Positions 6,937 through 64,000 of a stretch of 64,000 bases of DNA are shown here, piece after piece. A program made the position numbers and the translations under genes. The notes under the pieces are model-generated. The model saw nothing but the letters and a program-made list of their open reading frames with translations. It searched no databases and had not been told where the DNA came from. The stretch spans positions 416,001 to 480,000 of the forward strand of contig BK006943.2 of the NCBI GenBank assembly GCA_000146045.2, written 5' to 3'. How positions within the stretch are numbered: the first letter of the stretch is position 1; each line of letters begins with the position of its first letter. The stretch comes from TPA_inf: Saccharomyces. Lineage: Eukaryota.

Positions 6937-7009
6937 GCTTCAGTAGCTCAGTAGGAAGAGCGTCAGTCTCATAATCTGAAGGTCGAGAGTTCGAACCTCC
7001 CCTGGAGCA
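6937..7009 (+). tRNA. tM(CAU): Elongator tRNA-Met (anticodon CAU), 73 nt, followed by an oligo-T Pol III terminator
   Basis: GCTTCAGTAGCTCAGTAGGAAGAGCGTCAGTCTCATAATCTGAAGGTCGAGAGTTCGAACCTCCCCTGGAGCA. The anticodon loop CTCATAA and GTTCGAA T-loop are present. A T-run follows at 7012-7026. Confidence 0.9.
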
Positions 7010-7137
7010 CATTTTCTTTTTTTGTGAATTAAACCTCGAAGCTCAACATTCATGTTTTGAGATAAAAAAAGGTACTTATTACTTGTGTAAAAGAAAGTTT
7101 ATAATGATGATCTTATTTAAGTTTATAGTAGGACTTT

Positions 7138-8109
7138 CTATGCATGTCTTGTAGAACTATTTATGCTGGACTCGCCATTAATTAGCTCCAGTGAAAGTAC
7201 ATATCTTCTTTCTTGGACATTATTATCTCTAGTAATAGTGATATAAGGATCGGCATTCAACAGGTGATCTGGTATTTGCGGCAATCCAGATTCTGGTCCT
7301 GCGTTTTTTTTCAGTTCCATAAACCTTTCAACGCCAATCGGCAGCAAATCAGCCGGTAAATGACGTTGTAGATCGCACATATCGAATGAATTGATGTAAA
7401 AATTGACTATATCAAAATAAGCTTCATTTACGGATTTCTCGTCTGTTTCAAATAAAGAATACCTTTTACTTGACCAATTCTTATTATCTAGTAATTCATA
7501 TGCTATTTTCAAAATGGCCAATGCAATGGAATGTTGGGGTATGACTAAAATAGTTTCTAGCTTCAAAGCATCATAAGCAATTACCCAAGCCAGATTGCAC
7601 AACTTATAATCAAAGGATAGCTCCCTACCAATTTTTATAACATATTCATCAATATGAACGTAATTGTTGACTCTATAATCGAATGAGCATGACTCTAATA
7701 TCCGAAGTTCTATTTGAAATACCCTTTTTTTAAAATTTTCCAAAATGTCCGTATTGATTTTAACCACATTCCTCAATCGTAATGACAAAGTACATATATC
7801 ATTTGTTTTTTTAATTGTCTCAACTTCTTTACAGCCCAAAGTCAGGCAGCTTGTCGCTACAGTGTAGCAAACCTCGGTCTCGAAGCGATTAAAGAGGTGG
7901 TATCTTTGGTAAAAGTATACTGCTGTTTCTAAAGTCTTCCGTGGAAATTTCAGCTGAACACACAAGTCACTTAGAAATTTGAACACGGCAAGTTTTTTCT
8001 GGTTGTAATTTCGATAGTCCGATATTGTATTCTTTTGGGCTCTTTGAATTTGCCTTTTAGACAGAAACGGTCTCGAAAAAAAAAGCTGGGATTCAAACGT
8101 GCTAGGCAT
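7138..8109 (-). CDS. CTK2: CTD kinase I cyclin (beta) subunit, 323 aa
   Basis: 323-aa ORF with an ATG start. Position matches YJL006C between CCT8 and CYR1. Confidence 0.85.
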   Translation of the reverse strand: MPSTFESQLFFSRPFLSKRQIQRAQKNTISDYRNYNQKKLAVFKFLSDLCVQLKFPRKTLETAVYFYQRYHLFNRFETEVCYTVATSCLTLGCKEVETIKKTNDICTLSLRLRNVVKINTDILENFKKRVFQIELRILESCSFDYRVNNYVHIDEYVIKIGRELSFDYKLCNLAWVIAYDALKLETILVIPQHSIALAILKIAYELLDNKNWSSKRYSLFETDEKSVNEAYFDIVNFYINSFDMCDLQRHLPADLLPIGVERFMELKKNAGPESGLPQIPDHLLNADPYITITRDNNVQERRYVLSLELINGESSINSSTRHA

Positions 8110-8431
8110 ATCAAAGTACGTAATTTTCTTAGTTTTGCTGGCTCTATATCTCCTCTCGCTCTATAGATACAGATATATATATATATATATATATATCTAT
8201 GTGTATAAAGACGGCTTTCAGGACAGTACTTGTTTGGATTTTTGATCATCGCGGATTTTCGCAATGCAAGTATAAAGAGAGCATTACCCGCCACACAGTG
8301 ATTCTTCAGCAAGTTGTACCGAAAAGGACCATTTAGGTACGTGGGATCGCAAAGGTTCCCAAACGGTGTGCATCAAGCCGTAGACTTCATGAGTGCTTTC
8401 GGTGCAGCAAAAAGATAAGGACAAAAAATAC

Positions 8432-8515
8432 TGAAGGATGCGAGGTTCGAACTCGCGCGGACAACCGTCCAACAGATCTTAAGTCTGCCGCCTTAGACCA
8501 CTCGGCCAACCCTCC
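8432..8515 (-). tRNA. tL(UAA): tRNA-Leu (anticodon UAA), 84 nt, no intron; the terminator T-run lies downstream on the minus strand
   Basis: Reverse complement is GGAGGGTTGGCCGAGTGGTCTAAGGCGGCAGACTTAAGATCTGTTGGACGGTTGTCCGCGCGAGTTCGAACCTCGCATCCTTCA. Long variable arm, anticodon TAA. A T7 tract (8423-8429 on the minus strand) follows. Confidence 0.9.
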
Positions 8516-9156
8516 ATCTTATTTAAAAATCCTAGGAAATAGATGTTATATAAGTCATACATCATTGAAAACATCAAATACCGTTCCCTGCGTTGTTCTA
8601 CAGAAAAGCGCATTAGAGTAGGTCATACCCTTTAAAAAATGATTTTGTAAATGCCAGAAAGTAAACAAATATGCATTTCGCCTAGCTCCCAATGTAAATA
8701 GCCATAAAAAAGGATAAAATGCCAGATTTAGAGTCAGTTCTCGTTCTTCTTCTTCTCTGTGTTCAATTGTTCAATTGCATTGTTAATCACTGAAATTCTA
8801 TGTTTCAAATTGGAATGGCAGACTGAACTGAGACCTTCCTTACTTTCTCCTCTATCAAACCTAAATATTCAATCATAACCTTATTTTTTCACTTCCTTTT
8901 TCTTACTTTTTTTTTTTTTTTTTTTTTGTATTTTGGAAGGAAAGCAGGGGGGACTTACCATAAGAAAAGCGACTCTAAAAAAGTGTATTTTCTTCCAAAG
9001 TTCAGTAAAGACAGCTGGGAAGTATAGTAACAGAGGAGAGAAAGCATAAGGAGACCTCTTGCTGCAGTTCACAACCAAAAATAGCATATCTTTACTATTG
9101 TCGCTAACCATTGCGAAACGAGCTAAAGCAACAGCAAACGAAATCCCTAGGTCGAA

Positions 9157-20801: not shown

Positions 20802-22610
20802 ATGCCTGAGCAAGAACCATTGAGTCCCAATGGCCGTAAGCGCTCTGAGGTTCACTATATCTCAATCCCATTGAACAGAGGTTCCGCATTCTCACCAGAT
20901 GATTCTGTATCACAGTTTCAGTCTGACGGGTTCATGACACGTAGGCAATCCATATTGGACCATCCTGTGGGCTCATTTAAGGGAGTTAATTCTTTAAGTC
21001 GATTTGCGACTTCGTTGAGGAGAGCCAATTCGTTTCGTAATATCGAGCTAAATGCGGATAATGAAAGATCCTTTTTCAAAGAGAGTAACGATGAAACCTA
21101 CGATCCGGATACTTTAGCACCAGCTTTGGACGGTAGAAGATTATCAGTAACTTTAAATAATGCTGGTCGCCCGCGCATTACTAATTTGGCTAACAACGAT
21201 AGAGTTAGTACAGCCAGCATGGCTATTCACGATGATGATTATGGGTCCATCCAAAATTCAACAATTGGGGATTCTGGGTCAATATTACGCCCTACTGCCT
21301 CCTTAACAGAAATGATGAGTGGTGGAGCGGGGAGAAGGTTTACAAATAATGACATGGATTCAATTGTAGTGAAGAGAGTGGAGGGTGTAGATGGTAAGGT
21401 AGTAACTCTTCTTGCTGGTCAGTCGACCGCTCCACAGACCATATTCAACTCAATCAATGTACTGATTGGTATTGGGCTCCTGGCGTTACCTCTTGGTTTG
21501 AAATACGCCGGCTGGGTTATAGGACTTACTATGCTTGCAATCTTCGCCTTAGCGACATTTTGTACTGCTGAACTTTTGTCTAGGTGCCTAGATACAGATC
21601 CAACTTTGATATCTTACGCGGACTTGGGATATGCAGCATTTGGTACAAAAGGGCGCGCACTAATTTCTGCTCTTTTCACACTTGACCTACTGGGTAGTGG
21701 GGTGTCCTTGGTGATTCTCTTCGGAGATTCTTTAAATGCTCTATTTCCTCAATACTCCACCACTTTTTTCAAAATAGTTTCATTTTTTATCGTTACACCC
21801 CCGGTTTTTATACCATTGAGTGTTCTATCTAATATCTCGCTTCTGGGAATCCTTTCAACAACCGGAACTGTGCTAGTCATTTGCTGCTGCGGACTATACA
21901 AGTCGTCTTCTCCAGGTTCATTAGTTAATCCGATGGAAACGAGCATGTGGCCGATAGATCTAAAGCATCTCTGTTTATCTATAGGTTTATTGAGTGCCTG
22001 CTGGGGAGGACATGCGGTTTTTCCCAACTTAAAGACAGATATGAGGCATCCAGATAAATTTAAAGACTGTTTGAAAACTACCTATAAGATAACATCGGTT
22101 ACGGACATAGGTACTGCAGTTATTGGCTTTTTGATGTTTGGAAATCTTGTTAAAGATGAAATTACTAAGAACGTTTTGCTGACGGAGGGATATCCAAAAT
22201 TCGTTTATGGTCTGATTTCAGCGCTTATGACTATCATTCCTATCGCAAAGACCCCATTGAACGCAAGACCTATCGTTTCTGTATTGGACGTTCTGATGAA
22301 TGTGCAACACATAGATGAAGCGGCCAGCGCCATAAAAAGAAGAGCTGCGAAAGGCCTTCAAGTATTCAATAGGATCTTTATTAATGTTGTCTTCGTTTTG
22401 ATAGCTATTAATTTCCCTGAATTTGATAAGATTATCGCATTTCTGGGGGCCGGTTTGTGTTTTACAATTTGCCTAATTTTGCCGTGTTGGTTCTATTTAA
22501 GATTGTGCAAGACAACAATCAAACCATGGGAGAGAGTGGCTTGTCACGTAACCATATGTATTAGTGTCGTGTTGTCCACATTAGGTGTTGGTGCTGCAAT
22601 TATTTCATAA
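20802..22610 (+). CDS. AVT1: Vacuolar neutral amino-acid transporter, 602 aa
   Basis: 602-aa ORF with a hydrophilic N-terminal domain followed by ~11 transmembrane helices. Position matches YJR001W. Confidence 0.85.
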
Positions 22611-37682: not shown

Positions 37683-38708
<1,026 letters not shown>

Positions 38709-50520: not shown

Positions 50521-51033
50521 CTAACCTACCCGCTTGATCACATGAACACCGCTTCCTGATTCAACGATATCGCTTACCTCGCCGACCTTGAGCTGGAAGG
50601 CAGCGTCTTCAAAGCTAGGCTGCATCTCGCCTCTCCCGAACCAGCCGAGGTCGCCGCCTCGCTTGTATGAAGAGCAATCTGATCTCTCTTTAGCCAGGGC
50701 CTCGAAGGAGTTCGTCTTAGAGTCGTCATCCAACCTCGTGATTAAGGTTTTCAGTTCGTCCGTAGCGTCTTGCTTGGATATCGTAATGTTCTCGGATCTA
50801 TGCGATGCGGGTCTTCTTGAATCCTTGTGCTTGATGAGAATGTGCAGGCATCTTACACGCACTGGATGGTCTCTTAAGTGCTTGTGTAGCTGGTCCTTGT
50901 TGGTGCCCTCAGGCTCCTCCCATTGCGAGTGCTTCGTCTCTGGATTGAAAAAATACTCTCTTTTCTTGGACTTACTATACCTGACGGTCCACGGGGTTGG
51001 CAGCCCGGTCCTCGATGCTACGTCAGATGGCAT
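50521..51033 (-). CDS. ESS1: Parvulin-type peptidyl-prolyl cis/trans isomerase (Pin1 homolog) with an N-terminal WW domain, 170 aa
   Basis: Taking the first ATG in the ORF (51033) gives MPSDVASRTGLPTPWTVRYSKSKKREYFFNPETKHSQWEEP (WW domain) followed by a rotamase domain, 170 aa in total. Confidence 0.85.
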   Translation of the reverse strand: MPSDVASRTGLPTPWTVRYSKSKKREYFFNPETKHSQWEEPEGTNKDQLHKHLRDHPVRVRCLHILIKHKDSRRPASHRSENITISKQDATDELKTLITRLDDDSKTNSFEALAKERSDCSSYKRGGDLGWFGRGEMQPSFEDAAFQLKVGEVSDIVESGSGVHVIKRVG

Positions 51034-51231
51034 TGGTGCGTCGTTGTGGTGCCGTAGTCGGTTATGCGTGGGAATAAGTACCACAATGATCATTCAGGTC
51101 CTTTTTCTACTTAGATCGAAGGGAAAAAGGTATGATACCCGCTCGTGAAAGGTGATGTAATAATAAATAGGATATTATTATATAATATAAGAATATATAT
51201 GTATGTGTTTATACGTGGGAGGGAATTGTCC

Positions 51232-52281
51232 TCAGAACTTGGCTCGAATGTCTCGTTCTGACCCGTAGACAACGTAGCCCTCCTGAGAGACGCTTGCCAT
51301 GATGCGTCCCGACTGTGTGTCGAAATACTTGCCCTGTACGAGGTGCTTGTCCCAGTGGGACCTGGGATTCGAAATCTTAAGATAGATCCAATTGTTCACA
51401 TGAGGCAACTGGTGAAAGTAAATCGTGTGGTCGAGCGAGACACTGAAACTGTGGCAGTACAAAGGCAGGTTGTGGAAGTACGGGATCGTGAGTAGGAGGT
51501 AGGAATCGGACAGATACGCAAAGGCCACGTAGTTGTAGCGAGCGTCGTTCTCAGGAGTAATGCTCTTCGGGATCCTGTACGGATGATGCTTGTGTAAAGA
51601 AGACTCGTCGCCCGCGTGCTCCACGGTAGTGATGGGAGGTCTCACTTTGACGAAATAATCCAGCTCGTCGGTGTGTCTTGCCGAGTAGAACATGTCCTTG
51701 GGGAATTGGTACTCCATGACTCCGTATTGAAACGCATCCACATACTTGCTCATCGAGGTTGCGTCTTGGAACCTGTCGGACAATGAGGCATACCTGCTCA
51801 ATTTCTGTGGGTCCAGAACTTCTTTCTGGAAAAGCGAAGTGGCCTCTTCATAACGATGAGGGTCTGGCTGCTTACCTTGCAGGCCTGGAATCGTCTCCCA
51901 GTGCTGCAAGGAGTCGTGCTCCTTGGACCGTTGCACGGCAAATAAGATCATCGACGTAAATATCAACTTGTCGTGCTGATAAGCACTAACCTGCTTATGG
52001 ATGAAATTTCTACCGTTTCTCAGATTCTGCACATGGTACGTGATCTTGGTCCGCGGATCACCACCCTTGATGAAATACGAATGTAGCGATGTGGGGAAGA
52101 AGTTCAATGGCACAGTATGCAATGACGCCAGCAGCGATTGTGATACCAGCGTTCCACCAAAAGTGCCCTTAGACCCTACGGGCGCGGCAGGCAGATACTT
52201 TGTGACAAAACTGGTAGGCGAAAGAGGAACCAGTTCCAATATTTTCTCTAGGTTGGACATGGCCATTTTGGAAGCACTCAT
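51232..52281 (-). CDS. TES1: Peroxisomal acyl-CoA thioesterase, 349 aa, with a C-terminal AKF (PTS1)
   Basis: 349 aa, ending ...RDIRAKF. Position matches YJR019C. Confidence 0.85.
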   Translation of the reverse strand: MSASKMAMSNLEKILELVPLSPTSFVTKYLPAAPVGSKGTFGGTLVSQSLLASLHTVPLNFFPTSLHSYFIKGGDPRTKITYHVQNLRNGRNFIHKQVSAYQHDKLIFTSMILFAVQRSKEHDSLQHWETIPGLQGKQPDPHRYEEATSLFQKEVLDPQKLSRYASLSDRFQDATSMSKYVDAFQYGVMEYQFPKDMFYSARHTDELDYFVKVRPPITTVEHAGDESSLHKHHPYRIPKSITPENDARYNYVAFAYLSDSYLLLTIPYFHNLPLYCHSFSVSLDHTIYFHQLPHVNNWIYLKISNPRSHWDKHLVQGKYFDTQSGRIMASVSQEGYVVYGSERDIRAKF

Positions 52282-52388
52282 TTTTATGCAATCTTGTCTT
52301 ATCTTGTCTTGCTCATGGTGGATACTGAATTGAAACCCTTTTCTGGTTTATATCCAACTGGCGTGGTTTTTCATTGTAGGATGAGGCT

Positions 52389-52411
52389 CGGTGTTTATGC
52401 CGTCTCTTCCG
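52389..52411 (+). promoter_or_regulatory. Candidate oleate response element (Pip2-Oaf1 site) CGGtgtTtAtgccgtctcttCCG, about 110-130 bp upstream of TES1
   Basis: It fits CGGN3TNAN9-12CCG exactly, with an 11-nt spacer. TES1 is a peroxisomal beta-oxidation-associated gene. Confidence 0.5.
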
Positions 52412-52554
52412 AGGATGCAATCAAAGGCTCTCTCCTTTGTTGGGGTAGTAGCAAGTCCAATAAGCAACGCTTGTTTGTTGATTGGGCCGATTTACATAGC
52501 CTATACACTGCTGTTACATATGCCTGTGTAGAATGAAAAAGCAGGACGCCCGTT

Positions 52555-53579
52555 TCACAGCTCAGATTCCAGAGTGTCGGGTCTTAGTTCCTCCCAGGGA
52601 ATAATGGTCCTGGCCGCACGCTTCAGCCGATGGCTAGCGTCATCATTGTCTTCGCTATTGTGGTTTTGGCTGGTGGATAGGGTTGGGGAGCTGGATCTTC
52701 TGCGTTTCATGGACCTTGTGACCATCATTCTTGGTGGCGGCACGGACTTCTTACGCTGCTTATCGTGGGCTTCGTCCATATCGTGCAGGAGTGTGGTGCC
52801 ATTCAGAGACACATCCGGGCGATCGTAGGCGTGATCTGCCTTTTCTCGAAACGCCATCTCTAGAGCAGTCTGGCGGGTTTGTAGACTGTGCATGTCTTTG
52901 GATAGAGACAGGAGCACTTTATGCACGTCCTCCAGTTGGCTGCCGACGTTGAAGAGCATCTCCTGGGTGCACCTCATCGACTTTTCCGTCTCATGCTGCT
53001 TGTTAGTTACGTGTCGCGTTATCTTGGAATTATACCTGCTTATTTCTTCGACTAATACCTGCCTGTAGCTGGAATCCGACTTTGTCTTCTTCTCGTCGCC
53101 TTTCGATAACATTGCTGTTGACACTTTGTCCAGTTGGTTTTCAATCTGGGAAGCCAAATCCTTTATTAAGGTTTTCACGTTTCCTATACTACAGTTGTTA
53201 GTAAATGTGTTTTGGAAGAAAATGAATAAAAAACTTGAGGGTATGCACTGTGTTGGTACGAACCGTTCGTAGCAGCATCTTGTTCCAGTAGCTGGTTAAA
53301 CTTGTTTAGCGATTTACATAATGTCTTAGAATTTTCATTTAAAACTTTAATTAGCTTGTCAGAGTTTTCCCTCAGCTCCATACTCTCCAATTCCAGTTTA
53401 CCTGCCCATTCCAGTATCTGCTTGTCCGATTCCTCTAAAGCGCCTGCATTCGCTACTTTCCCACTGTGGGAGAATATAGATCTGAACGGTGATGATGTTT
53501 CTGTAATCATCAACGAGTGTTCAGAATTAGCCTCTGAAACATCTGTAGATATCTCGTCTGTTCTACCTCTAGCGACCAT
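52555..53579 (-). CDS. REC107: Meiotic recombination protein Rec107/Mer2, 314 aa. It is spliced: exon 1 is 53264-53579, the 80-nt intron is 53184-53263 and exon 2 is 52555-53183.
   Basis: Exon 1 ends ...GCTACGAACG, followed by the non-canonical donor GTTCGT. The branchpoint TACTAAC and acceptor TATAG are present. The exons join in frame (...[14 protein letters not shown]...). 105 codons plus a split Gly codon plus 208 codons gives 314 aa. Confidence 0.8.
53237..53244 (-). promoter_or_regulatory. Mer1 intronic splicing enhancer ATACCCTC (AYACCCUY) inside the REC107 intron, 13 nt downstream of the 5' splice site
   Basis: Minus strand reads GTTCGTACCAACACAGTGCATACCCTCAAG. The enhancer consensus AYACCCUY is exact. 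Confidence 0.7.
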
Positions 53580-53783
53580 TTTACTAAATGTTTCTACACG
53601 TCTGCAGTATCCTTGTTTTGCTTGTTTTCCTTCTTTCTGTTCTTGTTGATTTTCCCTTTAAGTCCTGAAAATACTATCATGGCGTAAAGGGAAAAAAAAA
53701 AACTAATCTTACGTGGTTCTTATAAGATGGACCAGCAAGCTGCATACAGTACACCATACAAGAAGAACACACTATCGTGCACC

Positions 53784-54113
53784 ATGTCAGCCACCTTGAA
53801 AGACTACTTAAATAAAAGAGTTGTTATAATCAAAGTTGACGGCGAATGCCTCATAGCAAGCCTAAACGGCTTCGACAAAAATACTAATCTATTCATAACC
53901 AATGTTTTCAACCGCATAAGCAAGGAATTCATCTGCAAGGCACAGTTACTTCGAGGCAGCGAGATTGCTCTTGTTGGCCTCATAGATGCAGAAAATGATG
54001 ACAGTCTAGCTCCTATAGACGAAAAGAAGGTCCCAATGCTAAAGGACACCAAGAATAAAATCGAAAATGAGCATGTAATATGGGAAAAAGTGTACGAATC
54101 AAAGACAAAATAA
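53784..54113 (+). CDS. LSM8: U6 snRNP Sm-like protein Lsm8, 109 aa
   Basis: The second ATG of the track ORF gives MSATLKDYLNKRVVIIKVDGECLIASLNGFDKNTNLFITN (Sm fold), 109 aa. Confidence 0.8.
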   Translation: MSATLKDYLNKRVVIIKVDGECLIASLNGFDKNTNLFITNVFNRISKEFICKAQLLRGSEIALVGLIDAENDDSLAPIDEKKVPMLKDTKNKIENEHVIWEKVYESKTK

Positions 54114-54126
54114 TATAGTTGCAATA

Positions 54127-54127
<1 letters not shown>

Positions 54128-54180
<53 letters not shown>
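54128..54180. repeat. (AAT)n trinucleotide microsatellite, about 17 units, between the convergent LSM8 and MDE1 3' ends
   Basis: An uninterrupted aataataat... run was read directly. It creates the poly-Leu stretch in the antisense ORF 53804-54205. Confidence 0.95.
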
Positions 54181-54181
<1 letters not shown>

Positions 54182-54229
54182 CATGTATAGAAGTATATAA
54201 ATCATACAATAAATTTAAGCATTAACCCG

Positions 54230-54964
54230 TCACGGACTGGCCATCTTCAGATGCTTCTTCTCTTCGCCAATGCCACAGTCGGGAGGAATCCCCATTTGGT
54301 ACATCTTTATGGCCAGCTCCATCAAATAATCGATGGCTTCGTTGAAAATTTTGGCCTTATCGATTGTCGGACCCCAAACAAAAATGCCATGTCTCCTCAC
54401 AATTACGGCGCATGTGTCTGGATAATCTTTAAAAGTCTTGTGCAAGTCATCGATCAACTCGTCCTCATGCGCCATGTTTTCAATGATGGGAATCTTCAGC
54501 GTATCAAAAAACGATAGCGCCATGGGTTTCTTGGTCACAGGGTCCACCTTTCCGCTTGGAATTGCTTTGATTTGTTCGATGTTAGCAATCCTGAACTCAT
54601 CGCCAAATAGCAAGGAGCATATCACAGCATTTTGGGAGTGTGTATGTATTATAGCACCTGCATTTTTCTTTTGGTAGCACGCTAAGAACAATGGAGTACA
54701 TGCGCTTGGCTTGTAAAGCTTGGGAGAGCGCAAATACTCTAATGTCTGAGCGTCCATGACAAACAAATCCTCAGGTATCATCTTCTCCTTCTGCACCCCA
54801 GATGGGGCGAGATAATAATAATTCGTGTTAGGATCTTTTATTGAAATCCCACCTCCAGTTCCGGTGCACCAATTATTATGAAAAAACTGCTTGCATAGCG
54901 TGCAAATGAGATTTGCTGGATGGCACGGATCATCTGAATGTATCAGAACATCTTGTGAAGACAT
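54230..54964 (-). CDS. MDE1: Methylthioribulose-1-phosphate dehydratase (methionine salvage), 244 aa
   Basis: 244 aa from the class II aldolase/adducin family. Position matches YJR024C. Confidence 0.85.
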
Positions 54965-55137: not shown

Positions 55138-55671
55138 TTAATTAGATTGAGGGCGTGCGTAGTTTAACGTCTTGCAATGGAAACATGTCCTCTTTTCGAC
55201 ATCATTTTCAAAATCTAAAATGGCTTCTTTCACTTGGGTACCTAAGTCTAACATTTGCAGTTCACTCTCGTGGACCACTTGGCGACAATGAGAACAGTAC
55301 CACCTTATCTTATCGTTTTCTCCCCCAGGCCTATCTTGTTCCACAACAATACCCACAGTATCAGCAAACCGAACAGGACTGTGAGGAACATTTCCTGGCA
55401 ATAAATATGAATCGCCTTCATTGATGATGATATCAATGAACTTTGGTTCAGCGTCTGTCTCATCCACAACCTTTAAAAGCATAGATCCTTTTTTTTGATA
55501 GAACCATTCGGGAGTTGGATTGATGTGATAACCGGTTCTTTCATTAGGCCCACCGACAATCATCACAGTGAATCCCCCTTTATGTAAGCAATAATTATTC
55601 ACCGGTGGTTTCAAAAGGCCTTCGTTCTCCTTCAACCATTTGTCGATATTAATTGGTGTAGTATTAAACAT
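55138..55671 (-). CDS. BNA1: 3-hydroxyanthranilate 3,4-dioxygenase (NAD biosynthesis), 177 aa
   Basis: 177 aa with a cupin fold and a C-terminal CxxC...CxxC pair. Position matches YJR025C. Confidence 0.85.
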
Positions 55672-56759
55672 TTTTTTCGATTTTTTTGGTAAATGTATGC
55701 TATTTCAGTTACTTGTAGACTGTCGTGAAAAGAATAAAGAAAGAATCTTTTACGTCCGTTTTTTTACTTTGCCGAATATGTTTCAGTGACTCACAATTTA
55801 TCCTGACGCCGTCACAAAGGCAGCCATTCCATTGCAATAACGACACTCTGAATATTCACGAACGTTCACCAGACATTTGGAGGCAGCGTTCTAAATGCCG
55901 ATACCCGTTCAGGAGTACAGGTGTCAGTGACAGAAAAATAATGGCACCGTTGACGTCGAAAATACATCCGCGCAAATTTTGACAGGCTATTTTGGCAGCG
56001 CAATCAAAGAATAAACTTGGTATAGTAAGGAAGCCAGTTACTGTACGCATGAATTACGGTAGCTTTTTTTATTTTATTTATTTTTTTTTTTTTTGGACAA
56101 ATAGAAAAATTTTTATTATTATGTAAGATTATTGAAGTAAAAATACAATTGGACGAATCTAGTTAGATTGCCAAGATGTGTTAAAAGGCAAGATTAACTT
56201 ATGAACATGATCTACAACGTCCTGGTTTTTAAATTCGAGTAAATACGCCTCCTTTTTATCTGTGAATGACAGTCCTGTTCTCCCAAGTCTTTTTACATCA
56301 TGGAGACGGGAGTTATACTCTCTCGGGTACAAGGTTCCTTCAGCATCAGAACAGATCACAAACTTTATCGCAACAACAATTCCTTTATATTCCTGGGAAA
56401 ATATGTCGGTATAGCCTACTCGAGACGGCTTCCAAACATCAGCTTTCGTTTTAACATGTTGCTGTTGGAATAAAAATCCACTATCGTCTATCAACTAATA
56501 GTTATATTATCAATATATTATCATATACGGTGTTAAGATGATGACATAAGTTATGAGAAGCTGTCATCGAAGTTAGAGGAAGCTGAAACGCAAGGATTGA
56601 TAATGTAATAGGATCAATGAATATAAACATATAAAACGGAATGAGGAATAATCGTAATATTAGTATGTAGAAATATAGATTCCATTTTGAGGATTCCTAT
56701 ATCCTCGAGGAGAACTTCTAGTATATTCTGTATACCTAATATTATAGCCTTTATCAACA

Positions 56760-58082
56760 ATGGAATCCCAACAATTATCTCAACATTCACATATTTCTCA
56801 TGGTAGCGCCTGTGCTTCGGTTACTTCTAAGGAAGTCCACACAAATCAAGATCCGTTAGACGTTTCAGCTTCCAAAACAGAAGAATGTGAGAAGGCTTCC
56901 ACTAAGGCTAACTCTCAACAGACAACAACACCTGCTTCATCAGCTGTTCCAGAGAACCCCCATCATGCCTCTCCTCAACCTGCTTCAGTACCACCTCCAC
57001 AGAATGGGCCGTACCCACAGCAGTGCATGATGACCCAAAACCAAGCCAATCCATCTGGTTGGTCATTTTACGGACACCCATCTATGATTCCGTATACACC
57101 TTATCAAATGTCGCCTATGTACTTTCCACCTGGGCCACAATCACAGTTTCCGCAGTATCCATCATCAGTTGGAACGCCTCTGAGCACTCCATCACCTGAG
57201 TCAGGTAATACATTTACTGATTCATCCTCAGCGGACTCTGATATGACATCCACTAAAAAATATGTCAGACCACCACCAATGTTAACCTCACCTAATGACT
57301 TTCCAAATTGGGTTAAAACATACATCAAATTTTTACAAAACTCGAATCTCGGTGGTATTATTCCGACAGTAAACGGAAAACCCGTACGTCAGATCACTGA
57401 TGATGAACTCACCTTCTTGTATAACACTTTTCAAATATTTGCTCCCTCTCAATTCCTACCTACCTGGGTCAAAGACATCCTATCCGTTGATTATACGGAT
57501 ATCATGAAAATTCTTTCCAAAAGTATTGAAAAAATGCAATCTGATACCCAAGAGGCAAACGACATTGTGACCCTGGCAAATTTGCAATATAATGGCAGTA
57601 CACCTGCAGATGCATTTGAAACAAAAGTCACAAACATTATCGACAGACTGAACAATAATGGCATTCATATCAATAACAAGGTCGCATGCCAATTAATTAT
57701 GAGAGGTCTATCTGGCGAATATAAATTTTTACGCTACACACGTCATCGACATCTAAATATGACAGTCGCTGAACTGTTCTTAGATATCCATGCTATTTAT
57801 GAAGAACAACAGGGATCGAGAAACAGCAAACCTAATTACAGGAGAAATCTGAGTGATGAGAAGAATGATTCTCGCAGCTATACGAATACAACCAAACCCA
57901 AAGTTATAGCTCGGAATCCTCAAAAAACAAATAATTCGAAATCGAAAACAGCCAGGGCTCACAATGTATCCACATCTAATAACTCTCCCAGCACGGACAA
58001 CGATTCCATCAGTAAATCAACTACTGAACCGATTCAATTGAACAATAAGCACGACCTTCACCTTAGGCCAGGAACTTACTGA
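56760..58082 (+). CDS. TYA: Ty1 Gag (TYA), 440 aa; the ATG lies inside the 5' LTR
   Basis: [32 protein letters not shown]... is the canonical Ty1 Gag. Confidence 0.95.
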
Positions 58083-61000
58083 ATCTACGGTAAATCACAC
58101 TAATCATTCTGATGATGAACTCCCTGGACACCTCCTTCTCGATTCAGGAGCATCACGAACCCTTATAAGATCTGCTCATCACATACACTCAGCATCATCT
58201 AATCCTGACATAAACGTAGTTGATGCTCAAAAAAGAAATATACCAATTAACGCTATTGGTGACCTACAATTTCACTTCCAGGACAACACCAAAACATCAA
58301 TAAAGGTATTGCACACTCCTAACATAGCCTATGACTTACTCAGTTTGAATGAATTGGCTGCAGTAGATATCACAGCATGCTTTACCAAAAACGTCTTAGA
58401 ACGATCTGACGGCACTGTACTTGCACCTATCGTACAATATGGAGACTTTTACTGGGTATCTAAAAGGTACTTGCTTCCATCAAATATCTCCGTACCCACC
58501 ATCAATAATGTCCATACAAGTGAAAGTACACGCAAATATCCTTATCCTTTCATTCATCGAATGCTTGCGCATGCCAATGCACAGACAATTCGATACTCAC
58601 TTAAAAATAACACCATCACGTATTTTAACGAATCAGATGTCGACTGGTCTAGTGCTATTGACTATCAATGTCCTGATTGTTTAATCGGCAAAAGCACCAA
58701 ACACAGACATATCAAAGGTTCACGACTAAAATACCAAAATTCATACGAACCCTTTCAATACCTACATACTGACATATTTGGTCCAGTTCACAACCTACCA
58801 AAAAGTGCACCATCCTATTTCATCTCATTTACTGATGAGACAACAAAATTCCGTTGGGTTTATCCATTACACGACCGTCGCGAGGACTCTATCCTCGATG
58901 TTTTTACTACGATACTAGCTTTTATTAAGAACCAGTTTCAGGCCAGTGTCTTGGTTATACAAATGGACCGTGGTTCTGAGTATACTAACAGAACTCTCCA
59001 TAAATTCCTTGAAAAAAATGGTATAACTCCATGCTATACAACCACAGCGGATTCCCGAGCACATGGAGTCGCTGAACGGCTCAACCGTACCTTATTAGAT
59101 GACTGCCGTACTCAACTGCAATGTAGTGGTTTACCGAACCATTTATGGTTCTCTGCAATCGAATTTTCTACTATTGTGAGAAATTCACTAGCTTCACCTA
59201 AAAGCAAAAAATCTGCAAGACAACATGCTGGCTTGGCAGGACTTGATATCAGTACTTTGTTACCTTTCGGTCAACCTGTTATCGTCAATGATCACAACCC
59301 TAACTCCAAAATACATCCTCGTGGCATCCCAGGTTACGCTCTACATCCGTCTCGAAACTCTTATGGATATATCATCTATCTTCCATCCTTAAAGAAGACA
59401 GTAGATACAACTAACTATGTTATTCTTCAGGGCAAGGAATCCAGATTAGATCAATTCAATTACGACGCACTCACTTTCGATGAAGACTTAAACCGTTTAA
59501 CTGCTTCATATCAATCGTTCATTGCGTCAAATGAGATCCAAGAATCCAATGATCTTAACATAGAATCTGACCATGACTTCCAATCTGACATTGAACTACA
59601 TCCTGAGCAACCGAGAAATGTCCTTTCAAAAGCTGTGAGTCCAACCGATTCCACACCTCCGTCAACTCATACTGAAGATTCGAAACGTGTTTCTAAAACC
59701 AATATTCGCGCACCCAGAGAAGTTGACCCCAACATATCTGAATCTAATATTCTTCCATCAAAGAAGAGATCTAGCACCCCCCAAATTTCCAATATCGAGA
59801 GTACCGGTTCGGGTGGTATGCATAAATTAAATGTTCCTTTACTTGCTCCCATGTCCCAATCTAACACACATGAGTCGTCGCACGCCAGTAAATCTAAAGA
59901 TTTCAGACACTCAGACTCGTACAGTGAAAATGAGACTAATCATACAAACGTACCAATATCCAGTACGGGTGGTACCAACAACAAAACTGTTCCGCAGATA
60001 AGTGACCAAGAGACTGAGAAAAGGATTATACACCGTTCACCTTCAATCGATGCTTCTCCACCGGAAAATAATTCATCGCACAATATTGTTCCTATCAAAA
60101 CGCCAACTACTGTTTCTGAACAGAATACCGAGGAATCTATCATCGCTGATCTCCCACTCCCTGATCTACCTCCAGAATCTCCTACCGAATTCCCTGACCC
60201 ATTTAAAGAACTCCCACCGATAAATTCTCATCAAACTAATTCCAGTTTGGGTGGTATTGGTGACTCTAATGCCTATACTACTATCAACAGTAAGAAAAGA
60301 TCATTAGAAGATAATGAAACTGAAATTAAGGTATCACGAGACACATGGAATACTAAGAATATGCGTAGTTTAGAACCTCCGAGATCGAAGAAACGAATTC
60401 ACCTGATTGCAGCTGTAAAAGCAGTAAAATCAATCAAACCAATACGGACAACCTTACGATACGATGAGGCAATCACCTATAATAAAGATATTAAAGAAAA
60501 AGAAAAATATATCGAGGCATACCACAAAGAAGTCAATCAACTGTTGAAGATGAAAACTTGGGACACTGACGAATATTATGACAGAAAAGAAATAGACCCT
60601 AAAAGAGTAATAAACTCAATGTTTATCTTCAACAAGAAACGTGACGGTACTCATAAAGCTAGATTTGTTGCAAGAGGTGACATTCAGCATCCTGATACGT
60701 ACGATACAGGTATGCAATCCAACACTGTACATCATTATGCGTTGATGACATCCCTGTCACTTGCATTAGACAATAACTACTATATTACACAATTAGACAT
60801 ATCTTCGGCATATTTGTATGCAGACATCAAAGAAGAATTATACATAAGACCTCCACCACATTTAGGAATGAATGATAAGTTGATACGTTTGAAGAAATCA
60901 CATTATGGATTGAAACAAAGTGGAGCGAACTGGTACGAAACTATCAAATCATACCTGATAAAACAGTGTGGTATGGAAGAAGTTCGTGGATGGTCATGCG

Positions 61001-62028
61001 TATTTAAGAATAGTCAAGTAACAATTTGCTTATTCGTTGATGATATGATATTGTTCAGCAAAGACTTAAATGCAAATAAGAAAATCATAACAACACTCAA
61101 GAAACAATACGATACAAAGATAATAAATCTGGGTGAAAGTGATAACGAAATTCAGTACGACATACTTGGCTTAGAAATCAAATATCAAAGAGGTAAATAC
61201 ATGAAATTAGGTATGGAAAACTCATTAACTGAGAAAATACCCAAATTAAACGTACCTTTGAATCCAAAAGGAAGAAAACTTAGCGCTCCAGGTCAACCAG
61301 GTCTTTATATAGACCAGGATGAACTAGAAATAGATGAAGATGAATACAAAGAGAAGGTACATGAAATGCAAAAGTTGATTGGTCTAGCTTCATATGTTGG
61401 ATATAAATTTAGATTTGACTTACTATACTACATCAACACACTTGCTCAACATATACTATTCCCCTCTAGGCAAGTTTTAGACATGACATATGAGTTAATA
61501 CAATTCATGTGGGACACTAGAGATAAACAACTGATATGGCACAAAAACAAACCTACCGAGCCAGATAATAAACTAGTCGCAATAAGCGATGCTTCATATG
61601 GTAACCAACCATATTACAAGTCACAAATTGGTAACATTTTCCTACTCAACGGAAAAGTGATTGGAGGAAAGTCGACAAAGGCTTCATTAACATGTACTTC
61701 AACTACGGAAGCAGAAATACACGCGATAAGTGAATCTGTCCCATTATTAAATAATCTAAGTTACCTGATACAAGAACTTAACAAGAAACCAATTATTAAA
61801 GGCTTACTTACTGATAGTAGATCAACGATCAGTATAATTAAGTCTACAAATGAAGAGAAATTTAGAAACAGATTTTTTGGCACAAAGGCAATGAGACTTA
61901 GAGATGAAGTATCAGGTAATAATTTATACGTATACTACATCGAGACCAAGAAGAACATTGCTGATGTGATGACAAAACCTCTTCCGATAAAAACATTTAA
62001 ACTATTAACTAACAAATGGATTCATTAG
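58066..62028 (+). CDS. TYB: Ty1 Pol (TYB: protease, integrase, reverse transcriptase, RNase H). It is expressed as a Gag-Pol fusion by +1 ribosomal frameshifting at CTTAGGC (58062-58068).
   Basis: The +1 frame is open from the frameshift heptamer to 62028. It contains the protease DSGAS, the integrase HHCC/DDE region, and RT YVDDM-like FVDDMIL. Confidence 0.9.
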
Positions 62029-62343
62029 ATCTATTACATTATGGGTGGTATGTTGGAATAGAAATCAACTATCATCTACTAACTAGTATTTACATTACTA
62101 GTATATTATCATATACGGTGTTAGAAGATGACGCAAATGATGAGAAATAGTCATCTAAATTAGTGGAAGCTGAAACGCAAGGATTGATAATGTAATAGGA
62201 TCAATGAATATAAACATATAAAATGATGATAATAATATTTATAGAATTGTGTAGAATTGCAGATTCCCTTTTATGGATTCCTAAATCCTTGAGGAGAACT
62301 TCTAGTATATTCTGTATACCTAATATTATAGCCTTTATCAACA

Positions 62344-63666
62344 ATGGAATCCCAACAATTATCTCAACATTCACATATTTCTCATGGTAGCGCCTGTGCT
62401 TCGGTTACTTCTAAGGAAGTCCACACAAATCAAGATCCGTTAGACGTTTCAGCTTCCAAAACAGAAGAATGTGAGAAGGCTTCCACTAAGGCTAACTCTC
62501 AACAGACAACAACACCTGCTTCATCAGCTGTTCCAGAGAACCCCCATCATGCCTCTCCTCAAACTGCTCAGTCACATTCACCACAGAATGGGCCGTACCC
62601 ACAGCAGTGCATGATGACCCAAAACCAAGCCAATCCATCTGGTTGGTCATTTTACGGACACCCATCTATGATTCCGTATACACCTTATCAAATGTCGCCT
62701 ATGTACTTTCCACCTGGGCCACAATCACAGTTTCCGCAGTATCCATCATCAGTTGGAACGCCTCTGAGCACTCCATCACCTGAGTCAGGTAATACATTTA
62801 CTGATTCATCCTCAGCGGACTCTGATATGACATCCACTAAAAAATATGTCAGACCACCACCAATGTTAACCTCACCTAATGACTTTCCAAATTGGGTTAA
62901 AACATACATCAAATTTTTACAAAACTCGAATCTCGGTGGTATTATTCCGACAGTAAACGGAAAACCCGTACGTCAGATCACTGATGATGAACTCACCTTC
63001 TTGTATAACACTTTTCAAATATTTGCTCCCTCTCAATTCCTACCTACCTGGGTCAAAGACATCCTATCCGTTGATTATACGGATATCATGAAAATTCTTT
63101 CCAAAAGTATTGAAAAAATGCAATCTGATACCCAAGAGGCAAACGACATTGTGACCCTGGCAAATTTGCAATATAATGGCAGTACACCTGCAGATGCATT
63201 TGAAACAAAAGTCACAAACATTATCGACAGACTGAACAATAATGGCATTCATATCAATAACAAGGTCGCATGCCAATTAATTATGAGAGGTCTATCTGGC
63301 GAATATAAATTTTTACGCTACACACGTCATCGACATCTAAATATGACAGTCGCTGAACTGTTCTTAGATATCCATGCTATTTATGAAGAACAACAGGGAT
63401 CGAGAAACAGTAAACCTAATTACAGGAGAAATCCGAGTGATGAGAAGAATGATTCTCGCAGCTATACGAATACAACCAAACCCAAAGTTATAGCTCGGAA
63501 TCCTCAAAAAACAAATAATTCGAAATCGAAAACAGCCAGGGCTCACAATGTATCCACATCTAATAACTCTCCCAGCACGGACAACGATTCCATCAGTAAA
63601 TCAACTACTGAACCGATTCAATTGAACAATAAGCACGACCTTCATCTTAGGCCAGAAACTTACTGA
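62344..63666 (+). CDS. TYA: Ty1 Gag (TYA) of copy 2, 440 aa
   Basis: Nearly identical to the copy 1 Gag, except for a short variant patch ([10 protein letters not shown] instead of [10 protein letters not shown]) and two point substitutions. Confidence 0.95.
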
Positions 63667-64000
63667 ATCTACAGTAAATCATACTAATCATTCTGATGAT
63701 GAACTCCCTGGACACCTCCTTCTCGATTCAGGAGCATCACGAACCCTTATAAGATCTGCTCATCACATACACTCAGCATCATCTAATCCTGACATAAACG
63801 TAGTTGATGCTCAAAAAAGAAATATACCAATTAACGCTATTGGTGACCTACAATTTCACTTCCAGGACAACACCAAAACATCAATAAAGGTATTGCACAC
63901 TCCTAACATAGCCTATGACTTACTCAGTTTGAATGAATTGGCTGCAGTAGATATCACAGCATGCTTTACCAAAAACGTCTTAGAACGGTCTGACGGCACT
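63650..64000 (+). CDS. TYB: Ty1 Pol (TYB) of copy 2, N-terminal part only; the frameshift site CTTAGGC is at 63646-63652
   Basis: The same heptamer is present and the +1 frame stays open to the window end (..[14 protein letters not shown]..). Confidence 0.85.

Follow-up and report, generated by a model that had tools for sequence, protein, structure and literature searches.

The region at 52555–53579 of the window (the whole 64,000-nucleotide stretch of DNA that was analysed) raises the question of whether two open reading frames (ORFs) on one strand form a single meiotic gene, and whether the intron whose removal would join them is one that Mer1 activates. Both strands of 52300–53900 were inspected and their features were computed. 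The gene lay on the minus strand and had the following parts:

52555..53579, minus strand: REC107/MER2 gene from ATG to stop, intron included; the spliced product is 314 aa
53579–53577, minus strand: start ATG
53264..53579, minus strand: exon 1, 316 nt (105 codons + 1 nt), long for a yeast 5' exon
53184..53263, minus strand: intron, 80 nt
53258..53263, minus strand: donor (5' splice site) GTTCGT, non-consensus, with U at +3 and C at +4
53237..53244, minus strand: Mer1 intronic splicing enhancer ATACCCTC (AYACCCUY), intron nt 20–27
53197..53203, minus strand: branchpoint TACTAAC, consensus, with the branch A at 53198
53184..53188, minus strand: acceptor (3' splice site) TATAG, the final TAG being the stop of the unspliced frame
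52555..53183, minus strand: exon 2, 629 nt, TGA stop included
52557–52555, minus strand: stop TGA

The preliminary description had placed an 80-nt REC107/MER2 intron at 53184–53263, and these coordinates proved exact on the minus strand. The signals that it had listed were likewise located: a donor GTTCGT instead of GTATGT (53263–53258), an AYACCCUY enhancer (53244–53237) separated from the donor hexamer by 13 bases, a TACTAAC branchpoint (53203–53197) and a TATAG acceptor (53188–53184). The branch A lies 14 nt from the 3' end of the intron, which reads GTTCGTACCAACACAGTGCATACCCTCAAGTTTTTTATTCATTTTCTTCCAAAACACATTTACTAACAACTGTAGTATAG on the minus strand. The element thus has the GU donor, the UACUAAC and the YAG by which spliceosomal introns of budding yeast are recognized, and its removal restores the frame, turning two ORFs into one 945-nt ORF of 314 aa.

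The spliced 314-aa protein was identical to Rec107p of S. cerevisiae S288C (NP_012555.1 / RE107_YEAST; exact-sequence match) and 99% identical to many S. cerevisiae proteins named Rec107p. The Pfam Mer2 family (PF09074) matched residues 26–214 with E=6.4e-72, unbroken across the splice junction at codon 106. The score was 241.9 bits vs a gathering threshold of 27.7, and profile positions 2–193 of 193 were covered. The identity with NP_012555.1 and the Pfam match establish the locus as REC107/MER2, the name that it had been given from the letters, and they identify the host gene as meiotic, as expected for a member of the Mer1 regulon. We take its systematic name to be YJR021C. The Mer2 protein has a role in meiotic recombination and double-strand breaks (PMC6380292; PMC5570110).

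A reading without any intron would make the 131-aa ORF (53579–53184) and the 207-aa ORF (53178–52555) two separate genes. The ORF listing does show two ORFs, and the ENA and Logan calls divide the orthologs in the same way. However, a single Pfam Mer2 match crosses the junction, the spliced product is exactly the curated Rec107p, and the second ORF starts only with GTG. In addition, the donor, branch and acceptor signals are canonical and conserved, and the spliced cDNA has been published many times, for example in RT-PCR assays (PMC3082912). We regard the probability of two genes as practically nil. As a separate observation, the prokaryote-style gene callers (ENA, Logan; loci L003–L007) cut the MER2 orthologs into two ORFs, both of them Pfam Mer2-positive, because the intron is not modelled. 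This split-gene artefact appears as 206–238-aa "proteins" in a large protein collection.

The neighbouring genes were as follows:

51232–52281, minus strand: acyl-CoA thioesterase gene
53784–54113, plus strand: LSM protein gene
54230–54964, minus strand: class II aldolase gene
55138–55671, minus strand: 3-hydroxyanthranilate dioxygenase (3-HAO) gene

The families are those expected here, and the genes correspond to TES1, LSM8, MDE1 and BNA1 of chromosome X. S. kudriavzevii, S. uvarum, Kazachstania africana and Maudiozyma exigua share this gene order at their orthologous loci. Several other features were observed around them. The LSM-domain ORF (53727–54113, plus strand) contains a further ATG upstream in the same frame: translation from 53727 yields 128 aa and translation from 53784 yields 109 aa, and either length is annotated in public assemblies. 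The gap from the LSM gene to the aldolase-II gene contains a long (ATA)n trinucleotide microsatellite (~54127–54180), which gives rise to a spurious poly-leucine ORF of 133 aa (53804–54205, minus strand). Two pairs of long ORFs overlap on opposite strands (37683–38681, minus, with 37698–38420, plus; 50521–51093, minus, with 50588–51148, plus), and one ORF of each pair is presumably spurious. The end of the window (56536–64000, plus strand) holds two tandem Ty-type retrotransposons, with 440-aa TYA capsid ORFs at 56760–58082 and 62344–63666 (plus strand), a reverse-transcriptase/integrase ORF at 58309–62028 (plus strand), and direct repeats at 56536–56946 and 62123–62530, spaced by ~5585 nt.

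We then considered the strength of the donor. When compared with the yeast consensus GUAYGU (PMC7969001), GTTCGT deviates only at +3 (U for A), the C at +4 being a permitted variant; the 5' splice site is therefore non-consensus, as in the Mer1 regulon. The MER2 donor has been published as GUUCGU, and Npl3 becomes largely dispensable once this donor is mutated to GUACGU (PMC7969001), indicating that the operative weakness of the donor is the U at +3. The ACUUAC motif of U1 snRNA anneals to the 5' splice site (PMC3753624). By standard base-pairing, GUUCGU would pair with U1 snRNA at positions 1, 2, 5 and 6 only.

[quoted passage not shown] In the present intron, ATACCCTC at nt 20–27 falls at this distance from the donor. 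Mer1 is made in meiosis only, and it acts with U1 and U2 snRNP components (PMC3082912; PMC11585973). MER2 is transcribed in vegetative cells, where about 20% of it is spliced; this proportion reached 87% with forced expression of Mer1 and was 5% in nam8-delta cells expressing Mer1 (PMC3082912). In meiosis, splicing was 76% in the wild type vs 6% in nam8-delta (PMC3082912). The KH-domain residues Arg214 and Gln243 of Mer1 are required for MER2 splicing, and the CCC-to-GGG test of the enhancer was carried out on MER3 and SPO22 (PMC3082912). A second data set, that of Scherrer and Spingola, gives 13–14% without and 53–59% with Mer1, as quoted in PMC3226532. Snu17, Bud13 and Snu114 are further inputs to MER2 splicing (PMC6380292).

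These data bear on two claims that the preliminary description had made, namely that the intron is a meiosis-specific switch and that productive splicing needs Mer1. The switch is upheld by the published rise from 20% to 87% with Mer1, but it is not all-or-none, since a basal 13–20% is spliced. The need for Mer1 is also supported, but Mer1 does not act alone: Nam8, Snu17/Bud13 (the RES complex), Npl3 and spliceosome availability contribute as well. Efficient vegetative splicing without Mer1 is excluded by published RT-PCR, in which the basal level was ~20% (PMC3082912).

The frequency of the motif was also considered. AYACCCTY by itself was not enriched, with 9 matches in the 64-kb window vs 6.3 ± 2.8 expected from dinucleotide shuffles, so that the octamer derives its meaning only from its context. 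A composite pattern was defined as GTNNGT, 8–25 nt, AYACCCTY, TACTAAC and YAG, in that order. It had one instance in the window, whereas 0.0067 would be expected per 64 kb on both strands (300 Markov-1 simulations), and this sole instance sits exactly where excision restores the 314-aa Mer2 frame. Two of the nine octamer matches (7719–7726 and 8625–8632) were near tRNA genes, which are tRNA-Met (CAT) at 6937–7010 (plus strand) and tRNA-Leu (TAA) at 8431–8516 (minus strand).

With a relaxed pattern, a second candidate for a Mer1-type intron was found at 21439–21190 on the minus strand (GTCTGT ... ACACCCTC ... TACTAAC ... TAG). It was rejected as a chance match that lies antisense within a 602-aa ORF (20802–22610, plus strand); its distance of 46 nt from GTCTGT to the octamer is beyond the published range.

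The octamer frequency and this fortuitous relaxed match are what would be expected if the MER2 intron were an ordinary constitutive intron and its octamer a chance match with no regulatory role. The rarity of the strict composite in simulation speaks against this explanation, and we examined conservation as further evidence. Ten orthologous loci were retrieved, and the comparison covered seven Saccharomyces lineages as well as V. polyspora, M. exigua and K. africana. In the seven Saccharomyces lineages, the intron was in the same codon phase, after an exon 1 of 316 nt where this was measurable. The parts of the intron were conserved in these seven lineages as follows:

Donor, intron nt 1–7: 6/7 columns invariant; mean pairwise identity 0.92
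Enhancer block TGCAYACCYTYA: 9/12 columns invariant; mean pairwise identity 0.87
Branch block TACTAACAAC: 9/10 columns invariant; mean pairwise identity 0.97
Remaining intron, 48 columns: 9/48 invariant; mean pairwise identity 0.60

In the seven Saccharomyces lineages, the donor and the enhancer and branch blocks thus stand out as conserved islands while the intron around them diverges. The identity of 0.87 in the enhancer block vs the intron background of 0.60 argues against a chance octamer, and a constitutive intron is refuted by the published response to Mer1 (PMC3082912). Taken together, the chance explanation is extremely improbable, and the reading of a Mer1-activated intron is retained.

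At the branchpoint, TACTAACAA was invariant in 7/7 Saccharomyces lineages, the following base being C here and T in L003. The donor was GTTYGT in all seven, always with U at +3, and the +3 base was never A in any of the 10 orthologous loci, including those of the three distant genera. GTTCGT was found in S. cerevisiae and its two closest lineages; GTTTGT in the S. kudriavzevii and S. uvarum lineages, two related lineages, Vanderwaltozyma polyspora and M. exigua; and GTGTGT in K. africana. The enhancer was ATACCCTC or ATACCCTT in three Saccharomyces lineages. Outside Saccharomyces, exact AYACCCTY matches were present in V. polyspora (ATACCCTT) and M. exigua (ACACCCTT), and K. africana had ATACCTCT at the enhancer position. 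In the remaining 4/7 Saccharomyces lineages (S. kudriavzevii, S. uvarum and two related ones), the enhancer was ACACCTTT, the CCU form, which departs from the CCC described as "invariant", at these positions of the orthologous MER2 introns:

L001 1839–1846, L002 1839–1846, L006 328–335 and L007 271–278: CCU-form enhancers, reading ACACCUUU in S. kudriavzevii and S. uvarum

All four CCU-form lineages carried the donor GTTTGT. The first C is the most sensitive position of the enhancer, and Qiu, Schwer and Shuman reported that a CCU variant of the SPO22 enhancer was as active as the wild type, with 89% splicing (PMC3082912). The CCU form is therefore compatible with conserved regulation. In eight other S. 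cerevisiae assemblies, which all represented one allele, the intron was identical and 8 exon differences were found; as only ~0.7 intron differences would be expected, this identity is uninformative. What the comparison adds is modest: the deviant +3 and the enhancer block are kept across Saccharomyces and into Vanderwaltozyma and Maudiozyma.

The fate of the unspliced transcript was also considered. The ORF at 53579–53184 (minus strand) encodes 131 aa, and its stop TAG is formed by the terminal 3 bases of the intron, in agreement with the 131-aa product ending in the intron frame that the preliminary description had proposed. The retained intron had an in-frame stop in every ortholog, after 1 to 26 intron-encoded codons depending on the species, and the intron-encoded tails showed no conservation among the orthologs. 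The presence of the 131-aa ORF and the transcription of MER2 in vegetative cells (PMC3082912) would fit a productive intron-retained transcript, that is, a functional truncated 131-aa protein in vegetative cells. However, the tails differ by species in sequence as well as in length, which argues against a functional truncated isoform, and no such product is reported in the MER2 splicing literature surveyed. We therefore consider a functional truncated protein very doubtful.

The weakness of the donor also admits an explanation in which spliceosome competition, and not Mer1 binding, mainly sets meiosis-specific splicing. On this account, the weak donor would lose to ribosomal-protein pre-mRNAs in vegetative cells and win after their down-regulation, and Nam8 and Npl3 would assist weak sites in general. 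Competition from ribosomal-protein pre-mRNAs is indeed relieved as Snf2 falls, and deletion of SNF2 in vegetative ume6-delta cells raises MER2 splicing by 118% while the MER1 and NAM8 RNAs are unchanged (PMC5570110). The loss of the Npl3 requirement with a GUACGU donor points in the same direction (PMC7969001). However, in vegetative cells, in which competition stays the same, forced Mer1 alone brings the spliced fraction from 20% to 87% (PMC3082912), and the enhancer is conserved. Moreover, the published Mer1-regulon data imply that meiotic MER2 splicing stays impaired in mer1-delta, which speaks against competition as the primary mechanism. Competition as the main determinant is thus unlikely; it looks like an additional layer and not a replacement for Mer1.

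Two details of the intron could lower vegetative splicing independently of the U1 mismatch. The first is a second AG close to the acceptor:

53189..53190, minus strand: proximal AG (CUGUAG), with the branch A 9 nt before it and the used acceptor 5 nt after it

Use of this AG would read G|TA TAG, giving a frame shift and an immediate stop. It was present in 5/7 Saccharomyces lineages and absent in L004 and L001/L005. The second is at the end of exon 1, where ACGAAC (53270–53265) is the perfect reverse complement of the donor GUUCGU with one G between them (53258–53270, minus strand). For S. cerevisiae, the predicted energy of the resulting mini-hairpin was -3.7 kcal/mol; the values ranged from -1.1 to -2.4 for other Saccharomyces lineages and from 0 to -0.9 for the three distant genera. 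The S. paradoxus-like and S. mikatae-like loci have lost the hairpin, as have the distant genera. A fold of 140 nt around the intron gave -22.5 kcal/mol, no better than shuffled sequences (z=-0.30), and an Rfam scan of the whole window returned the two tRNAs only, with no RNA family at the MER2 locus. RNA structure was therefore rejected as a supported cause of weak splicing, given this z value and a hairpin that is weak and is absent or weaker in orthologs. The proximal AG, as a decoy, or the ACGAAC hairpin, by occluding the donor, might still lower vegetative splicing, but judged from the sequence such an effect is improbable. If true, either would form an extra layer on the MER2 splicing switch. 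Both are intron details that appear to be unreported.

The intron described here is the MER2/REC107 intron of S. cerevisiae itself and shows no difference from it: the protein is the S288C reference, the donor is GUUCGU as published, and the enhancer is an AYACCCUY motif that lies as far from the 5' splice site as published. This intron was reportedly first described by Engebrecht, Voelkel-Meiman and Roeder (1991, Cell 66:1257) and by Nandabalan, Price and Roeder (1993, Cell 73:407). Spingola and Ares (2000, Mol Cell 6:329) are also said to belong to the original descriptions, with RT-PCR across the intron in vegetative, meiotic and Mer1-expressing cells that supports Mer1 dependence. Compared with the other Mer1-regulon introns (MER3/HFM1, AMA1/SPO70 and SPO22/ZIP4), MER2 differs in its consensus branchpoint and its vegetative transcription. 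MER2 ranks between AMA1 and MER3 both in splice-site scores and in basal splicing (PMC3226532), and Bud13 is needed by MER2 and AMA1 but not by MER3 (PMC6380292). The PCH2 intron resembles that of MER2 in belonging to a meiotic gene, in its Nam8-dependent splicing and in its long 5' exon (PMC3082912). However, PCH2 splicing is independent of Mer1 (PMC3082912); the 5' splice site of PCH2 follows the consensus, its branchpoint does not, and it lacks a Mer1 enhancer, so that MER2 is the reverse on all three.

As described above, the region is almost certainly S. cerevisiae REC107/MER2 with its classic Mer1-activated intron. The computation presented here supplies the anatomy, the identity of the gene and the evidence that its signals are conserved; the dependence on Mer1 and Nam8 and the role of the donor are established by the experiments of others. 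Nothing was found in the analysis that contradicts this reading, with the chance-level octamer, the CCU forms and the leaky basal splicing as its qualifications. In the mechanism that these data support, the donor GUUCGU engages U1 snRNP poorly because it mismatches U1 snRNA at +3 and +4, and vegetative cells keep the intron in most transcripts. A retained intron yields no full-length Mer2, since codon 131 is followed by an in-frame stop. The KH-domain protein Mer1 is expressed in meiosis and binds AUACCCUC, 13 nt past the donor hexamer. There it acts with Nam8 of the U1 snRNP, and with Snu17/Bud13 and Npl3, to stabilise early spliceosome assembly; the manner in which Mer1 contacts U1 and U2 is still inferred in the field. 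Efficient splicing then yields the 314-aa Mer2, a protein of DNA-break initiation.

The regulation of the MER2 intron is already known, and the present analysis adds no new biology; the recognition of the intron from raw sequence was a correct reading of a true regulatory anatomy. Among cases of regulated, cell-type-specific splicing in budding yeast, the MER2 intron is the founding one, and MER2 is one of only four known Mer1 targets. The intron gates the production of Mer2, which is needed to start meiotic DNA double-strand breaks.
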